Assembly: GCA_022822905.1 (NCBI GenBank)
Contig: JAJDYE010000008.1
Span: 32,846-96,845 of the forward strand
DNA from: Acidimicrobiia bacterium
GTDB taxonomy: Bacteria > Actinomycetota > Acidimicrobiia > Acidimicrobiales > Bin134
DNA: 64,000 nt
Reading direction: 5' to 3'
In this document: one piece after another, positions 1 through 53,098 of the stretch
Numbering within the stretch: the stretch's first letter is position 1
How the letters are laid out: each line of letters opens with the position of its first letter
Made by a program: the position numbers and the translations under genes
The notes under the pieces: generated by a model
Told to the model about the DNA's origin: nothing
Seen by the model: the letters and a program-made list of their open reading frames with translations, nothing else
Databases searched by the model: none

Positions 1-422
1 GTTTCCGGGTGCTACGGGTAATCGAGATTTTGGGCATCGTGCGGCGGGAGCTGGTGGTGCAACTCCATCCTCGGGCGGTGGTGCCGGTTAGGGTGTCGGG
101 AGCGGTGGCTTCGGAGGCTTCGCTCACCCGAGTCCATAACTTCCAGATTCTGTGGGTGCTGGCCGCCGCCTCGGGGGTGTTCGGCATCGCCTTGCTGGGG
201 GGAGACATGCCGACCGCAGTGTCGGGGTCGATCTCCGCGCTGGCTACCGCCGGACCTGGCTTGGGCGATCTCTCGGGTTTTGCCGATGCCACGGTGCTGG
301 CTGCCCCGGCTCGAGGGGTGTTGATTGCCCTGATGTTCCTGGGCCGGCTGTCGATCTACCCGGTGGTGGTGGTGATCGGCTGGGGTATAGGCGAGATCCA
401 GCGGATGCGGCTGAGACGATGA
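1..422 (+). CDS. trkH: TrkH/KtrB-family K+ transporter, C-terminal fragment (gene starts upstream of window)
   Basis: The C-terminal sequence ISALATAGPGLGDLSG...ARGVLIALMFLGRLSIYPVVVV parallels the C-terminus of the next gene (ISALSNMGPALGDAG...ARAVLMSMMLIGRLEFF). Stop TGA at 420-422. Confidence 0.7.
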   Translation, partial: FRVLRVIEILGIVRRELVVQLHPRAVVPVRVSGAVASEASLTRVHNFQILWVLAAASGVFGIALLGGDMPTAVSGSISALATAGPGLGDLSGFADATVLAAPARGVLIALMFLGRLSIYPVVVVIGWGIGEIQRMRLRR

Positions 423-478
423 GGCTGAGACGATGAGGCTGGGGCGATGAGGCTGGAGACATGAGGCTGGGGCCATGA
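405..478. repeat. 14-bp tandem repeat, 5 units (atg[ac]ggctgNNNcN), spanning the trkH1 stop and the trkH2 start
   Basis: Units start at 405, 419, 433, 447 and 461. Each contains ATG, GAGG (unit 0 has GCGG) and, with the next unit, a TGA. Read directly from the sequence. Confidence 0.95.
419..478 (+). other. Chain of four 5-codon mini-ORFs (MRLRR, MRLGR, MRLET, MRLGP), each overlapping the next by ATGA
   Basis: ATG at 419, 433, 447 and 461; TGA at 434-436, 448-450, 462-464 and 476-478. The first ATG overlaps the trkH1 stop (420-422). The last TGA overlaps the trkH2 ATG (475-477). Confidence 0.6.
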
Positions 479-2055
479 CCGCGGTATTGACGGCTGCCCG
501 TCGGGGGAGGGCCGCGGTGAAATGGGCTGTGTCCCAGCTTCTGGTAGACCGACCCTGGAATGTGACCAGCAGAGTGGGGTTCGTGGTCGGGCTGGGGCTC
601 CTGTTCATGGTGCCGGGGATGCTGTTGGCCACCCTGGTGGAGTGGGGGTCGTCGGTATCGGACGATGAGATTGCCCTGGGAATGGGAGCGCTGGTCACGC
701 TTGTTGGAGGGGGGCTGTTGGTGACCTTCACTCGGCTCGACGAGGACATGCCCCCGGCCTCGGTCTTCGCGGCGGTGGCATGGACGTGGATCGGCTTGTC
801 GCTATTCGCCGCGCTGCCGCTGTGGTTTTCCGGCGAGCTGGGGAGCTTCGACACTGCCCTGTTCGAGGCGGTGTCGGGCGTTACCGCCACCGGCTCCACC
901 GTGCTCAGCCCCATAGAGGGGACGGGCCGAGGCGTGCTCATGTGGCGCCAGATCATGCAGTGGTACGGCGGCATGGGCATGGTGGTGCTGGCGGTGACCA
1001 TTCTGCCGTTCCTGGGGGTCGGAGGGCTGAGCCTCATCACTGCGGAGGCTCCCGGTCCCACGTCCGACCGGCTGGCGCCTCGGGTGAGTTCCACTGCCCG
1101 GAGGTTGTGGGCACTCTACGGTGGCATCACCCTCGCGATAGCGGCCGCCCTGATGATCGCCGGATTGAGCCTCTACGACGCAGTGGTCCATGCCTTCACC
1201 AGCGCAGGCACCGGGGGCTTCTCGCCTTACGACGACTCCATCGGCCACTTCGACAGCATCGCGGTGGAAGCGGTGATGATTGTTGGGATGCTGGTGGGAG
1301 GGGTGAGCTTCACCCTTCACTGGCGGGCGGTGTCGGGCAACCCGGGGGTTTACGGAAGGTCTTCTGAGTTTCGCACCTATCTCCTTGTGATATTCGCGGT
1401 CGCGTTGTTCGCGTCCCTGCTGAACTGGCTGAACGACTTGTCTGATCTGGCCAACAGTCTCCGCAACGGGATCTTCGGCGCGGTGACCCTGGGCACCAGC
1501 GGCGGTTTCGGCAACGCCTCCAGTGCCAATCCGGGCGGCGATTTCGCGGCATGGACGCCGGGGGCACAGGCATTGCTGCTGCCCCTCATGGTGATGGGGG
1601 GCATGACCGGGAGCACCGCCGGGGGGTTGAAAGTGTTGCGGGCCCAAGTGATGGCGAAATACATGCGGGTCGGGCTGCTGCGAGTGAAGCATCCCAGGGT
1701 GGTGGCACGGGTGAAGCTCGGCCAAATGGTGGTGTCGGAGCCGATACTCCAGCGGGTGGCGGGGCTGGTGGCCCTCTACGCGTTGTCAGCGCTTGTGGCA
1801 ACTTTGGTGCTGGCCGCATTGGGCCAAGACCTGATCACTTCCTCGTCTGCGGCCATAAGCGCGTTGAGCAATATGGGACCCGCTCTGGGCGACGCCGGGC
1901 CCACCTCCAACTACTTGGTGTTCTCCCGTCCGGCCCGGGCGGTGCTGATGTCGATGATGCTCATCGGCCGCCTGGAGTTCTTCGCCATCTTCTTGGTGGT
2001 GGTGTCGGCCTACGAGCGGACCCGTCGGCTGACCCGAGTCAACCTGCGACGTTGA
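475..2055 (+). CDS. trkH: TrkH-family potassium uptake protein
   Basis: 526-aa polytopic membrane protein with repeated pore-loop-like motifs (TATGSTV, SAGTGGFSP, GGMTGSTAGGLKV), typical of TrkH/KtrB. Confidence 0.85.
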   Translation: MTAVLTAARRGRAAVKWAVSQLLVDRPWNVTSRVGFVVGLGLLFMVPGMLLATLVEWGSSVSDDEIALGMGALVTLVGGGLLVTFTRLDEDMPPASVFAAVAWTWIGLSLFAALPLWFSGELGSFDTALFEAVSGVTATGSTVLSPIEGTGRGVLMWRQIMQWYGGMGMVVLAVTILPFLGVGGLSLITAEAPGPTSDRLAPRVSSTARRLWALYGGITLAIAAALMIAGLSLYDAVVHAFTSAGTGGFSPYDDSIGHFDSIAVEAVMIVGMLVGGVSFTLHWRAVSGNPGVYGRSSEFRTYLLVIFAVALFASLLNWLNDLSDLANSLRNGIFGAVTLGTSGGFGNASSANPGGDFAAWTPGAQALLLPLMVMGGMTGSTAGGLKVLRAQVMAKYMRVGLLRVKHPRVVARVKLGQMVVSEPILQRVAGLVALYALSALVATLVLAALGQDLITSSSAAISALSNMGPALGDAGPTSNYLVFSRPARAVLMSMMLIGRLEFFAIFLVVVSAYERTRRLTRVNLRR

Positions 2056-3467: not shown

Positions 3468-6400
3468 ATGAGGAACTGGCCGCAGCCTCCCGGTCTGCCA
3501 CACCCCCAGGGGCTTTACAACCCCCGAAACGAGCACGACGGCTGCGGGGTGGGCTTTCTGGTGGACCTTAAGGGTCGGCCGCGGCATGAGATTGTGTCTG
3601 TGGGCTACGGGGCTCTGTGCAACCTCCAGCATCGGGGGGCGCTGGGCGCGGAAGTGAACACCGGCGACGGCGCGGGATTGCTGATCCAGGTGCCCGACGA
3701 CTTCTACCGCCAGGTGTGCGACTTCGATCTGCCGCCGGCGGGACACTACGCCACCGGCATCGGCTTCCTCCCCGACACCCCCGAGGCCGCGGCCCATGCC
3801 CGGGAGGCCATGGACGCCATCGCTGCCGACGAGGGGCTGACTCCCCTGGGATGGCGGGAGGTGCCCACCTGTCCCGACGAGCTGGGGGCGCAGGCGCTGG
3901 CCACCATGCCCTCGTTCTGGCAGCCGTTCTACTCCGGCGACGGGCTCGATGCCGATGCACTCTTGCGGCGGGCCTACGTCGTGCGCACCCGCATTCGCAA
4001 CGAGGTTGCCTATGAGACCGATGACCAGGCCGATACTGGGGCACTGGGGTCGAAAACCCGCAAACTGACATATGGCTACTTTGCCAGTCTCTCCAACCGG
4101 ACCATCGTCTACAAGGGCATGCTCACCACCCCTCAGCTCGGAGAGTTCTACTCCGATCTGAGCGACACCCGGGTGACCAGTGCCCTGGCCATGATCCATT
4201 CCCGGTTCTCCACCAACACTTTCCCGTCCTGGCCGCTGGCCCACCCCTACCGCTTCATCTCCCACAACGGCGAGATCAACACCGTGCAGGGCAACCGCAA
4301 CTGGATGCGGACCCGTGAGGCGCTGTTGAGCTCGCCCCACCTCCCTGGCGACTTGGAGCGGCTGTTCCCGGTGTGCGCCGAGGGGGTGAGCGACACCGCC
4401 AGCTTCGACCAGGTACTGGAGCTGCTGTACATGGGCGGCTACTCGCTGCCCCAGGCGGTGCTCATGATGATCCCCGAGCCGTGGGAGAACCACGAGTCGA
4501 TGGCGCCAGAGCTGCGGGCCTTCTACCGCTACTACGCCTCGCTGATGGAGCCGTGGGACGGTCCCGCCGACATAGTGTTCAGCGATGGCACGCTGATCGG
4601 CGCGGTGCTCGACCGCAACGGCCTGCGCCCTTCCCGTTACTGGGTGACCGACGACGACCTGGTGATCATGGCGTCGGAAGTCGGGGTGATGGCCGTGGAC
4701 CCGGCGGCCATCGTGGAAAAGGGCCGCTTGCAGCCCGGCCGCATGTTCTTGATCGACACCTCTGAGGGCCGCATCGTGCGGGACACCGAGATCAAAGAGC
4801 GGTTGGCCTCGGCCCACCCCTATGGGCAGTGGCTGGCCGACAACCAAGTGGATCTCGACGATCTGGTCAACCGCCCGCTGCCCGAGCCGGACGACACCCC
4901 GCTGGTGGTTCGCCAACAGATGTTCGGCTACACCCATGAAGAGCTCAAGATCCTGCTGGCCCCCATGGCCCGCGACGGCAAAGAGGCGCTGGGGTCGATG
5001 GGCACTGATACCCCGGTGGCTGTTCTCTCCAACCGGTCCCGTTTGCTGTACGACTACTTCCAGCAGTTGTTCGCCCAGGTGACCAACCCACCGCTGGACG
5101 CCATCCGGGAGGAGATCATCACCGCCACCTGTGGATGGCTCGGCCCCGAGGGGAACCTGCTCGATCCCCGGCCCGAATCATGCCGCCAGATCTTCACCCC
5201 CCACCCGGTGATCACCGACCAGCAGTTGGCCAACCTGGTGGAGGTGGACGGGCCCGGAGGCCACAGCCACTGGTCCACTGAGGTCGTTCCCTGCCTGTAC
5301 GCGGTGGACGACGGAGGGCCGGGACTGCGGATCGCTATCCAGCGCATCCGGGAACAGGTGAGCCGAGCCATCGAAGCGGGCAAGAACATCATCGTGCTGT
5401 CCGACAGGGGGGCCGGTCTCGATTCGGCCCCGATCCCCTCATTGCTGGCCACCGCGGCGGTACACCACCACCTCATTCGGGAGAAGACCCGGACCCGGGT
5501 GGGCCTGGTGGTGGAAACCGGCGACGCCCGCGAGGTACACCACATCTGCCTGCTGCTGGCGTACGGGGCTACCGCGGTCAACCCCTATCTGGCATTCGAG
5601 ACGATCGACCAGATGATCGACGAGGGTCTGTGCGGCTTCTTGCCTGACGACGACAAGGCGCTGGCCCATCGCAACTACATCAAGGCTTGCGACAAGGGTG
5701 TGCTGAAGGTTATGTCCAAGATGGGCATCTCCACGGTGAAGTCGTATGTGGGGGCTCAGATCTTCGAGGCCATCGGCCTGGGGCACCCCATCATTCAGGA
5801 GTGCTTCACCGGCACGGTCAGCCGCTTGGGCGGCATCGGCTTCCCCCAGCTTGCCGAGGAGGTGCGGCTTCGCCACCGCATCGCCTACCCGGAGAACCCC
5901 GATGAGCGGGCCCACCGCACCCTGGAAGGGGGAGGGGAGTACCAGTGGCGCCGGGAGGGCGAGTACCACCTGTTCAACCCCGAGACGGTGTTCAAGCTTC
6001 AGCACGCCACCCGAGAAGGCCGCTACGACATCTTCAAGCAGTACACCGAGAATGTAGACACCCAGTCGGAGCGCCTGGCCACCCTGCGGGGGCTGTTCCG
6101 ATTCCGAACCGGGCGGCGAGAGCCGATTCCCATCGAGGAAGTGGAACCAGTCTCCAGCATCGTCACCCGGTTCTCCACCGGGGCCATGTCATACGGATCG
6201 ATCTCAGCCGAGGCCCACGAGACCCTGGCCATCGCCATGAACCGCATCGGCGGCAAGTCGAACACCGGCGAGGGAGGCGAAGACCCCGCCCGCTATGTGC
6301 CTGACCCCAATGGCGATCTGCGCCGCTCAGCCATCAAGCAGGCCGCGTCGGGGCGGTTCGGGGTGACCAGCGAATACCTGGTGAACAGCGACGACATCCA

Positions 6401-36855: not shown

Positions 36856-38655
36856 ATGACAGACGGCGACGCAGCGGCAGATACAGGTATCGCACCAGAG
36901 GAGTCTTCTCCAGCCGAGCAAGCAGGTATCGCACCAGAGGAGTCTTCTCCAGCCGAGCAGGTAGCAGCGCTTGAAGAAGAGATTGCCGTTCTCCGCCAGC
37001 GGCTTCAGGATGCCCCCAAGCGGGTCCGCACCCTAGAAGAGCGGCTCTTGGAGACCAAGGGACAGCTGGCCAAGGCTGTCTCCCAGAACGAGAAGCTCAC
37101 CTACACCCTTCGCGAAGCCCGTGAGCACATTTCCGCCCTGCGGGATGAGGTGGACAAACTCACCCAGCCCCCGTCGGCGTACGGGACTCTGCTGGGTCGC
37201 AACGAGGACGGGACGGTGGATGTGTTCTCGGGGGGTCGCAAGATGCGGGTCGCCCTCCATCCCGAGATCGAGTCTGAGGAGCTGAGCCGGGGACAGGAGG
37301 TTGTTCTGAACGAATCGCTGAACGTCGTTCTTTCCCGGGTGGGCGATGGCACCGGCGAGGTGGTGACCATCAAGGAGGTATTGGCCGGCGGTCTGCGGGC
37401 GCTCATTGTCGGGCGGGCCGACGAGGAGCGCGTGGTGGAGTTGGCCACCGAGATGATCGACCAGCCGCTCAAGAGCGGGGACACCGCGCTTATGGACTCT
37501 CGCTCGGGTCTGCTCGTCGAGCGCCTGCCCCGGCCCGAAGTAGAAGACCTCGTGCTAGAGGAAGTTCCCGATATCACCTACGAGCAGGTCGGTGGCTTGG
37601 ACGAGCAGATCGAGCAGATCACCGATGCGGTTGAGCTCCCCTTCGTTCACCAGGCTCTGTTCGCCGAGTACCAGTTGCCTGCACCCAAGGGCATCTTGTT
37701 GTACGGGCCGCCGGGTTGCGGCAAGACCCTGATCGCCAAGGCGGTGGCCAACTCCCTGGCCGGCAAAGTGGCCGACATCAGCTCGGACCGGGAAGCACGC
37801 TCCTATTTCCTGAATATCAAGGGTCCGGAACTGCTGAACAAGTACGTGGGCGAGACCGAGCGCCAGATCCGCCTGGTGTTCCAACGGGCTCGAGAGAAGT
37901 CGGCTGAGGGATGGCCGGTGATCGTGTTCTTCGACGAGATGGAATCTCTCTTCCGAACCCGGGGCACCGGGATCAGCTCTGATATGGAGTCCACCGTGGT
38001 GCCCCAGCTCTTGGCCGAGATCGACGGGGTGGAGACTCTGCGGAATGTGATCGTGATCGGCGCTTCGAACCGGGAAGACCTCATCGACCCGGCGATTCTG
38101 AGGCCGGGGCGTCTAGATGTGAAGATCAAGATCCAGCGTCCCGACGCTGACGCGGCCTGCGCCATTTTCTCCCGCTATCTCACCTCCGAGCTGCCAATCG
38201 CCGCCGAGATGGTGGAAGGTCTTGGCGGCGGCGACCCCGACAAGGCCATCCAGGCCATGATCGAGCAGACCGTGACCGAGATGTTCTTGGAAGAGGAGCG
38301 CAACCAGTTCTTGGAGGTCACCTACCAGAACGGTGACAAAGAGATCATGTACTTCAAGGACTTCGCTTCCGGAGCCATGATCGAGAACGTGGTACGGCGG
38401 GCCAAGAAGCTGGCCATCAAGCGTTTGTTGGCCGGCGGTGCGCCGGGCATCCACGTCACCGACCTGCTGAAGTCGGTGAACCAGGAGTATCGGGAGCACG
38501 AGGATCTGCCCAACACCACCAACCCCGACGACTGGGCCAAGATCTCGGGCAAGAAGGGGGAGCGAATCGTGTTCGTCCGCACGCTCCTGTCCGACGAGGA
38601 GTCGAGCCAGGGCGGGCGCTCCATAGAGGCCATCGGCCCCGGCCAATACCTCTGA
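36856..38655 (+). CDS. mpa: Proteasome-associated AAA ATPase (Mpa/ARC)
   Basis: Coiled-coil N-terminus, OB domains, Walker A GPPGCGKT, Walker B IVFFDEME and C-terminal GQYL docking motif. Confidence 0.95.
36886..36963. repeat. In-frame 39-nt tandem duplication in the mpa N-terminal region
   Basis: Copies at 36886-36924 and 36925-36963 differ at 2 positions. The protein reads [26 protein letters not shown]. Confidence 0.95.
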
Positions 38656-52591: not shown

Positions 52592-53098
52592 ATGACAGAC
52601 CCTGACGAGCACGACGAGATGCCGGACGAGGAGTTCGACGAAAGCGCCATCGACGACCTCGACGAAGACATCGGCGAGGAACTCGATGATGAGTTCGAAA
52701 CTGTCCTCGGAGACGGCGATCTTGAAGACGACGACCTTGACGACGACCTCGACGAGGAACTCGAGGAAGAGGAAGAGAGCGGGAACAACGGGCCGGCTCG
52801 CAACGCAACCGCGGGCGATGATGAGGATGGCGAAGGGGAGGACATCGACCCCGACAACGTCGAGGCTGATCTCGACACCATTTTGAAAGACCGCCTGGCC
52901 GCCGGTGACGACGAGGACGAAGACGAGGAGACTCCCGACCCGTCGCCTGAGACCTCGGGTCAGGTCGCGCCCAAGCGAGACAATGAGTGGACCTGCGAGG
53001 GGTGTTTCCTGATCGTCAGCTCAAGCCAGTTCGGGTCCCGCGAGAATCCCCGGTGCCCTTCGGGGGAAGAGCCCTGTCCGTCTTTGGCCCGGCTATGA
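52592..53098 (+). CDS. DUF4193-family protein (acidic N-terminus, C-terminal Cys4 zinc-ribbon-like)
   Basis: Long D/E tract followed by WTCEGCFLIVSSSQFGS..NPRCPSGEEPCP. Confidence 0.7.
   Translation: MTDPDEHDEMPDEEFDESAIDDLDEDIGEELDDEFETVLGDGDLEDDDLDDDLDEELEEEEESGNNGPARNATAGDDEDGEGEDIDPDNVEADLDTILKDRLAAGDDEDEDEETPDPSPETSGQVAPKRDNEWTCEGCFLIVSSSQFGSRENPRCPSGEEPCPSLARL

Follow-up and report, generated by a model that had tools for sequence, protein, structure and literature searches.

How two genes of one operon can remain translationally coupled when a tandem repeat has pushed them apart is the question raised by a locus in an Acidimicrobiia genome (contig JAJDYE010000008.1, positions 32,846 to 96,845 of the forward strand). 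Near the left end of this stretch of 64,000 nucleotides (nt), hereafter called the window, two paralogous trkH genes, trkH1 and trkH2, are joined by an array of 14-nt repeat units, each of which carries its own start codon, stop codon and, in most units, a Shine-Dalgarno-like element. The array might be a passive product of replication slippage, or it might hand ribosomes from the first gene to the second. The answer that is favored here is that the array is probably a slippage-born relay, which is kept by selection for coupling via serial termination-reinitiation.

The trkH1-trkH2 junction is a chain of overlapping mini-ORFs

The genes, repeat units and small open reading frames (ORFs) at the junction are the following.

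9..422, plus strand: 3' part of trkH1, last 137 codons; C-terminal part of the gene, cut by the window edge; TrkH, Pfam PF02386, E 5.7e-10
405..418, plus strand: repeat unit 1, ATGCGGCTGAGACG, inside trkH1; codes for MRLR and the two first bases of the final Arg codon
419..432, plus strand: repeat unit 2, ATGAGGCTGAGACG; its ATGA combines the trkH1 stop with the mini-ORF 1 start
433..446, plus strand: repeat unit 3, ATGAGGCTGGGGCG
447..460, plus strand: repeat unit 4, ATGAGGCTGGAGAC
461..474, plus strand: repeat unit 5, ATGAGGCTGGGGCC; its GAGG (463-466) is a Shine-Dalgarno-like element 8 nt upstream of the trkH2 ATG
419-436, plus strand: mini-ORF 1, MRLRR*; begins in the ATGA that contains the trkH1 stop
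433-450, plus strand: mini-ORF 2, MRLGR*
447-464, plus strand: mini-ORF 3, MRLET*
461-478, plus strand: mini-ORF 4, MRLGP*; ends in the ATGA (475-478) that also contains the trkH2 start
475..2055, plus strand: trkH2, 526 amino acids (aa); TrkH, Pfam PF02386, E 2.3e-52

Positions 405-474 thus consist of five 14-nt units arranged head-to-tail, which are followed by ATGACC with the trkH2 ATG at 475. Tandem Repeats Finder reported the segment 405-478 with a period of 14, 5.3 copies and a score of 74, and related rows scored up to 106. All five junctions in the window have the ATGA shape, so that each stop overlaps the next start. TrkH1 ends in EIQRMRLRR with the stop TGA at 420-422, and the full-length protein, as encoded in the source contig L064 and likewise in L002, has 434 aa. 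The paralogs TrkH1 and TrkH2 share 35% identity (BLASTP, E 1e-54).

An initial annotation, made from the sequence of the window, had described a 14-bp repeat that gives four ATGA-overlapping pentapeptide ORFs between trkH1 and trkH2, and both the coordinates and the peptides proved to be exactly as claimed. It had let the repeat run on from the trkH1 stop; the repetition is indeed present, but it starts earlier, as unit 1 (405-418) already lies within trkH1. It had also placed a GAGG 8 nt before the next ATG in every unit. This holds for the ATGs at 433, 447, 461 and 475 but not for the one at 419, since unit 1 reads ATGCGG and this ATG is consequently preceded by GCGG. Judged from the window together with the TrkH1 tails of outgroup genomes (QR[LM]RLxR*, see below), unit 1 is the template of the array.

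Matches to the unit with one mismatch were found 8 times elsewhere in the 64 kb, where they are scattered (shuffle mean 6.6), and five copies at exact 14-nt spacing are far beyond chance. With an ATGA in its unit, a period of 2 mod 3 and no stop in frame, any tandem repeat produces the mini-ORF chain automatically, and therefore the chain does not represent four separate coincidences.

Because the same arrays recur across independent assemblies and long-read chromosomes, the repeat is real and not an assembly error. The window array was recovered in the source contig L064 (ENA KELL22-1 scaffold_332, exact match), an identical array was present in three independent samples for each of two other lineages, and arrays were found in complete long-read chromosomes as well. 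The possibility of an assembly artefact, which had been raised together with the first description of the repeat, can thus be dismissed. One short-read (Logan) contig, L229 (1-37), ends within the array, 37 nt upstream of trkH2; possible reasons are that the assembly broke at the repeat or that the sample contained a mixture of copy numbers.

Other ways of reading the junction were considered and rejected. A fusion of TrkH1 and TrkH2 by read-through or frameshifting is prevented by the TGAs at 420, 434 and 448, which shut all three frames. The minus-strand ORFs at 12-1094 and 244-462, which cross the array, resemble the spurious frames that are common opposite high-GC coding sequence, in this case that of TrkH.

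The array arose from a plain overlap and varies in copy number

Junctions were parsed in 39 lineages, namely the window, L001-L036 and two more relatives obtained from exact-protein look-ups. In six genomes (L016, L023, L027, L028, L031 and L033), of which L027, L028, L031 and L033 are outgroups, trkH1 and trkH2 are joined by a direct ATGA, GTGA or TTGA overlap without any mini-ORF. The TrkH1 tail of the more distant genomes in this group reads QR[LM]RLxR* and corresponds to the unit template. In the remaining relatives one, two, three or four mini-ORFs were present in 13, 12, 5 and 3 lineages, respectively; ingroup arrays comprise 1-5 units, i.e., 0-4 mini-ORFs. Because the outgroups as well as L016 and L023 join the two genes directly, and because the TrkH1 tail supplies the template of the unit, the ancestral state was a plain four-base overlap, of which the array is a duplication. 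The earlier proposal that the array records repeated duplication of an ATGA junction is therefore strongly supported, both by the plain NTGA overlap in the six relatives and by the TrkH1 tail.

The chain is kept in nearly all of these variants. Among 103 junctions in the 39 lineages 102 overlap (92 as ATGA, 6 as GTGA, 2 as TTGA and 2 as TAATG), and by our own count the internal junctions, which involve neither the stop of trkH1 nor the start of trkH2, are all intact (31/31). Five codons are found in 57 of the 64 mini-ORFs. Units of odd length (8, 11 and 17 nt) occur, and all of these lengths are 2 mod 3, by which the reading phase is kept. The variation in copy number of the 14-mer that the initial annotation had suggested to look for in related genomes was thus found, and its prediction that any copy number regenerates an intact chain agrees with the natural variants of 1-5 units, which all keep the chain.

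Copy number changes between closely related lineages, as was seen from the exact-protein look-ups. L002 and L223 differ by one unit at a trkH2 DNA divergence of 0.7%, and at 2% trkH2 divergence the five units of the window compare with two units in L001/L226 and with four units in L020. Within a lineage the array is constant: the TrkH2 variant P0008 is accompanied by the same 5-unit array, and the variant P0012 by the same 2-unit array, in three independent samples each. At the other end of the scale, the array is retained among lineages with TrkH2 proteins that are only ∼85% identical. On these comparisons, the array is stable within a lineage and turns over at ∼1% sequence divergence, and it does not behave as a hypermutable contingency repeat. 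A scan of JGI metagenomes with the array flank gave no match; sponge symbionts are absent from that collection.

Some relatives show further peculiarities at the trkH2 start. In L023 (∼3834-4000), where the direct overlap of the two genes is ATGA, it bears about three copies of another tandem repeat of ∼46 nt, CACCGCGGGGTGGGCCCGGATCCGAGCAACCGTGGGAGCAATTTT, within an ORF of 563 aa. In L016 and L032 (junction at ∼4001) trkH2 has no N-terminal extension of ∼20 residues and begins with MRAR..., which looks as if a deletion had fused the ATG of a repeat unit straight to the gene body. The cluster member P0010 (516 aa, MRARLKRAV...) resembles this short trkH2.

Start, stop and GAGG are conserved while the rest of the unit drifts

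The majority-base frequencies in 57 non-first units were 1.00, 0.98, 0.98, 0.96, 0.91 and 0.95 at positions 1-6 (ATGAGG), 0.46-0.79 at positions 7-12 and 14, and 0.88 at position 13 (C). For comparison, fourfold-degenerate sites in the trkH2 genes of the same 28 genomes averaged 0.76, with 3.4% of them invariant, and second codon positions averaged 0.96. Among 32 unique units the ATGA holds only 4 of 97 mismatches (p = 7e-10). Contrasts between close pairs gave the same picture: positions 1-6 contained 2 of 26 substitutions, compared with 11.1 expected (p = 1e-4). These contrasts comprised 21 unit pairs in 11 contrasts, in which a few genomes occur in two pairs and the orthologous units were assigned by us. 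The comparison with fourfold sites indicates that ATGAGG is under purifying selection and that positions 7-12 and 14 drift like neutral sites.

The first unit has a different pattern. Its position 1 is variable, with TTG and GTG in the 28-genome profile and CTG and CTA in the outgroups, and its position 4 can be C; the ATG of the first unit is a mere Met codon of TrkH1. Units of the MKAQR type (ATGAAGG) regain an AGG, shifted by one base downstream, through a G at position 7, which would fit a Shine-Dalgarno-like role better than a constraint on the peptide. Codons 3-4 of the mini-ORFs are not conserved, and therefore the peptides themselves are unlikely to matter.

Operon context and local signals

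The order of genes is 5-formyltetrahydrofolate cyclo-ligase, trkA, trkH1, the array, trkH2 and a convergent M18 peptidase gene. With 95-99% identity, TrkH2 matches proteins of metagenome-assembled genomes (MAGs) that bear the label Acidimicrobiia or Candidatus Poriferisocius and include several complete chromosomes, and the host is a sponge-symbiont bacterium of the Acidimicrobiia (Ca. Poriferisocius). Upstream of the window, in L064 (1540-1640), the 3' end of trkA, GACGAAGTCAAGCGCTTCTTCGGGTGA, recurs ∼60 nt downstream with one mismatch. This copy sits in the trkA-trkH1 spacer right before the trkH1 ATG and represents a second junction duplication in the same operon.

No promoter-like site was found in or beside the array, and no terminator-like site either; the sole terminator-like hit (1257-1275) lies inside trkH2 and is within shuffle expectation. 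Rfam gave no match at E <= 1 in positions 1-2200 and none at the gathering score across the whole window, a tRNA scan gave no hit, and the window contains no 16S gene. The predicted RNA fold of 385-520 was no more stable than that of shuffled sequence (z = -0.26). One hairpin was predicted just past the trkH2 ATG.

477..518, plus strand: predicted hairpin ACCGCGG ... CCGCGGT; encloses GGAGG (506-510) and an in-frame GTG (517)

This hairpin is restricted to the closest relatives, and folds predicted for each genome around the trkH2 start have no structure in common. RNA structure was rejected as an explanation on the z score and the lack of a fold shared across the clade; the relevance of the hairpin is uncertain. 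The GGAGG within it is strong and lies 6 nt upstream of the GTG at 517, 14 codons into trkH2, and this GTG may be an internal trkH2 start in the closest relatives. As a general trkH2 start it was rejected: the GTG is missing in L008-L011 and others, the ATG at 475 is kept in 29 of 29 genomes that have the full-length N-terminus, and codons 2-14 look coding, being most variable at the third position.

A probable relay by serial termination-reinitiation

In the relay model, which starts from the observed anatomy of the array, its origin by duplication, its turnover in copy number and the purifying selection on ATGAGG and on the integrity of the chain, the array is a small, locally made minisatellite. 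In the ancestor, the four-base overlap of trkH1 and trkH2 (NTGA) would have been preceded, at a distance of 14 nt, by an in-frame ATG/TTG-AGG within the TrkH1 tail. These sites are short direct repeats, between which the replication machinery would have slipped and so duplicated the 14-nt segment with the junction, and subsequent slippage would have gained and lost whole units. A unit supplies a start and a stop (ATGA) as well as a GAGG 8 nt before the next start. Because the period is 2 mod 3 and the signals are present in each unit, every copy number yields unbroken five-codon ORFs, each overlapping the next at -4 nt. Having ended trkH1, a ribosome most likely reinitiates at the overlapping ATG, reads five codons, terminates, and repeats this up to trkH2. 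In this manner the relay would keep the paralogs coupled across a 52-nt spacer that is otherwise too long. Selection would hold the translation signals, and the peptides are probably functionless.

Published work on coupling provides the frame for this model. Coupling was most efficient at distances of -4 to +3 nt, with a contribution of the Shine-Dalgarno element; it was reduced by 40-80% at +14 nt and was nearly gone at +38 nt. Reinitiation needed no more than the last 15 nt of the upstream gene, and subunits of heteromeric complexes are overrepresented among the products of overlapping gene pairs (PMC10666635, PMC12548453). Short ORFs were able to bring ribosomes to a downstream gene (PMC12548453). 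Because coupling decays with distance in these systems, the 52-nt spacer would uncouple trkH2 unless the intervening ORFs are used. Coupling presumably matters since the two TrkH paralogs may need balanced amounts. The features conserved in the array are exactly those that serial termination-reinitiation would need. The relay suggested in the initial annotation is thus indirectly supported by the 1-5-unit variants, by the 102 overlaps in 103 junctions and by the purifying selection on ATGAGG, from which we infer that the mini-ORFs are translated, that the same ribosome is handed over, and that GAGG acts as a Shine-Dalgarno element.

Several points weigh against a relay. Four steps would be costly if the efficiency of reinitiation per step is below 1. 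Imperfection is tolerated, as the sole broken junction (L006, ATG of unit 2 changed to ATA) and the last mini-ORF of L035, which extends 9 nt into trkH2, show. The relay gives no account of the conserved C at unit position 13. GAGG is kept 8 nt upstream of each ATG, yet a crude survey of 44 long-ORF starts in the high-GC window found no clear enrichment of GGAGG/GAGG, starts of longest ORFs being unreliable. Finally, the junction counts are not independent, since units share ancestry, a problem that the close-pair contrasts lessen.

Some of these points would suit a neutral passenger repeat, that is a slippage product without a role, in which case trkH2 would be initiated de novo from the GAGG of the last unit and its own ATG. 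The gain and loss of whole units preserves the chain automatically, L006 persists with its broken link, similar arrays elsewhere have near-identical and evidently young units, and the use of Shine-Dalgarno elements has no independent evidence from the gene-start survey. Nevertheless, a passenger is considered unlikely, as the internal junctions are intact in 31 of 31 cases, the length variants preserve phase, and the array endures across lineages whose TrkH2 proteins are ∼85% identical. The associated view that the other ATGA copies look kept merely through youth or homogenisation by slippage has an equally small chance of being correct. Positions 7-12 and 14 have diverged like fourfold sites while ATGAGG has not, and because the conserved and the drifting positions share the same units and hence the same age, youth or whole-unit homogenisation fails as an explanation. 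The number of units could also be an evolvable rheostat: if the relay loses ribosomes at each step, copy number would set the TrkH2:TrkH1 ratio, and lineages would have been selected for different ratios. That 1-5 units occur, which change between lineages 0.7-2% apart and are stable within a lineage, would agree with this, and published systems have coupling efficiencies that depend on the context and stay below 100% (PMC12548453). The variation is, however, equally compatible with drift under a mere constraint to keep the chain, and a rheostat is regarded as improbable.

Two further explanations assign the repeat a function outside the relay. A conserved hexamer that recurs at fixed spacing could be a repeated binding site: a regulatory protein or small RNA of the operon would recognise ATGAGG, or CCTCAT in the opposite strand, and the start and stop codons would be incidental. 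Yet the hexamer consists exactly of a start, a stop and the Shine-Dalgarno-like GG, the motif-changing overlaps GTGA, TTGA and TAATG are tolerated, units of 8, 11 and 17 nt hold the reading phase and not the spacing, and no Rfam family, promoter-like site or stable structure was found at the array, which together make a binding site highly improbable. The mini-ORFs could also encode functional peptides that stall ribosomes in the presence of macrolide-like compounds of the sponge holobiont and thereby gate trkH2. MRLR is the shortest known macrolide arrest motif, at which erythromycin stalls the ribosome at Leu3 (PMC12583479), and it occurs in mini-ORF 1 (MRLRR) and in the TrkH1 tail. However, a M[RK]x[RK] start was found in only 9 of the 64 mini-ORFs, codons 3-4 drift like neutral sites, the downstream gene encodes a K+ transporter and not a resistance protein, and no alternative RNA structure was found, so that the locus also does not resemble ErmDL-type +X+ leader peptides, for which the motif, the identity of the downstream gene (here TrkH) and a conserved alternative structure would all have to agree. 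A macrolide-arrest role of MRLR was accordingly rated very unlikely, and drug sensing is given hardly any weight. The relay thus remains the preferred explanation of the array.

Similar arrays at other gene junctions

Pattern scans in other genomes and metagenomes covered ATGAGG or ATGAGGCTG cores at a period of 14, and the matches listed are not usable as a census. Among them, the same architecture was present at the following unrelated junctions, which were verified with Pfam.

L186, 6895-6968: acyl-CoA dehydrogenase pair, seven 14-nt units
L096: LarB-like AIR carboxylase, then LarC
L065: SIS-domain protein, then amidohydrolase; unit identical to ATGAGGCTGGGGCG
L093: GlmS-like protein, then ROK kinase
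L205: membrane protein, then GFO/IDH/MocA oxidoreductase

The near-identical units in these five arrays suggest recent duplications. By comparison, the Poriferisocius array stands out by its age and its diverged units.

Most of the listed matches to three ATGAGG at a period of 14 (L066-L184) are long (ATGAGGN)n heptamer arrays, which mostly lie outside long ORFs. They occur in Bacteroidota, Cyanobacteria, Planctomycetota and others, with 60-odd heptamer copies in the Planctomycetia MAG L076. The window itself contains two further repeats. A perfect direct duplication of 39 nt (36884-36959) is located in frame near the start of the ORF 36856-38655, and at 52711-52777 on the plus strand overlapping 12- and 15-nt repeats code for the acidic run DLEDDDLDDDLDEELEEEEE.

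Junction-spanning duplications, with a start, a stop and a Shine-Dalgarno-like element of their own, might form a widespread, unrecognised class of operon repeats, in which ribosomes reinitiate serially along numerous minimal ORFs (four here, seven in L186) and copy number is an evolvable dial for the ratio of the flanking proteins. Such a generalisation is doubtful at present. The locus has a bearing on local reinitiation by a terminating bacterial ribosome, of which the occurrence, the efficiency and the distance are still debated (PMC12548453, PMC10666635). It amounts to a naturally occurring set of constructs in which 0 to 4 five-codon ORFs follow one another with -4 nt overlaps, and in which some 30 species keep the start, the stop and GAGG while the remaining unit positions drift. 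Comparative evidence is thus at hand that coupling across a spacer can be carried by minimal ORFs, and the array variants are ready sequences for asking how many successive reinitiation steps a ribosome can make. The locus also shows an operon that absorbs slippage mutations at a junction without uncoupling its genes, and a like solution is seen at unrelated junctions in other phyla, such as those of the acyl-CoA dehydrogenase pair, LarB-like/LarC and GlmS-like/ROK.

Comparison with known systems

The array shares its slippage origin and variable copy number with the phase-variable simple sequence repeats of contingency loci. It differs from these in that its copy number switches neither a frame nor a promoter: both flanking frames stay the same whatever the copy number. 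Moreover, independent samples of one lineage have identical arrays, and the array is thus not hypermutable at that time scale.

With short upstream ORFs, such as the mycobacterial upstream ORFs and the bicistronic design (PMC12548453), the array has in common a very short ORF whose sole plausible role is to hand on the ribosome. Those ORFs are single, are located at the 5' end of the mRNA and are loaded de novo, whereas the trkH mini-ORFs are serial, lie within an operon and would be fed by a terminating ribosome.

The geometry at each junction is that of termination-reinitiation coupling at ATGA/TGATG overlaps (Huber et al., 2019, 2023; Brown and Wade, 2025), which has an overlap of -4 and sometimes -1 nt. 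As in these pairs, the genes are co-oriented with stop and start overlapping by -4 or -1 nt (5/5 ATGA junctions in the window, 102/103 in the set of relatives), a GAGG that may serve as a Shine-Dalgarno element, which contributes to such coupling but is not obligatory, lies upstream of the restart codon, and the paralog pair may form a complex. The known cases consist of a single junction between full-length genes. In the trkH array, five-codon ORFs link up to five junctions into a chain, and the number of links varies among the lineages.

The closest known parallel is the mycobacterial interspersed repetitive unit (MIRU, or MIRU-VNTR). The MIRU of the senX3-regX3 operon (Supply et al., 1997) is described as an intercistronic repeat of variable copy number, the internal ORF of which couples at -4 nt, and MIRUs as elements of ∼40-100 bp that are dispersed over some 40-50 loci and are apparently mobile (PMC12548453, PMC3184786). 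Both systems are copy-number-variable tandem repeats between the genes of one operon in an actinobacterium, and in both a small ORF per repeat has the orientation of the flanking genes and overlaps the neighboring stop and start by -4 nt. Because the ORF ends overlap the flanking stop and start, the insertion or expansion of a MIRU and the expansion of the array are both expected to disturb downstream translation little. The trkH array likewise has internal ORFs that overlap the flanking stop and start, and its copy number differs between lineages (1-5 units in 39 lineages). It deviates from MIRUs in its unit of 14 nt as opposed to 40-100 bp and in its dispersal, as no other tandem copy is present in the 64-kb window and single near-matches are at chance level. 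The trkH unit, moreover, was born from the local junction (the last 10 nt of trkH1 and ATGA), its ORFs are minimal pentapeptides, and its host is an acidimicrobial sponge symbiont and not a mycobacterium. The array is therefore best described as a new, minimal variant of coupling-preserving intercistronic repeats.

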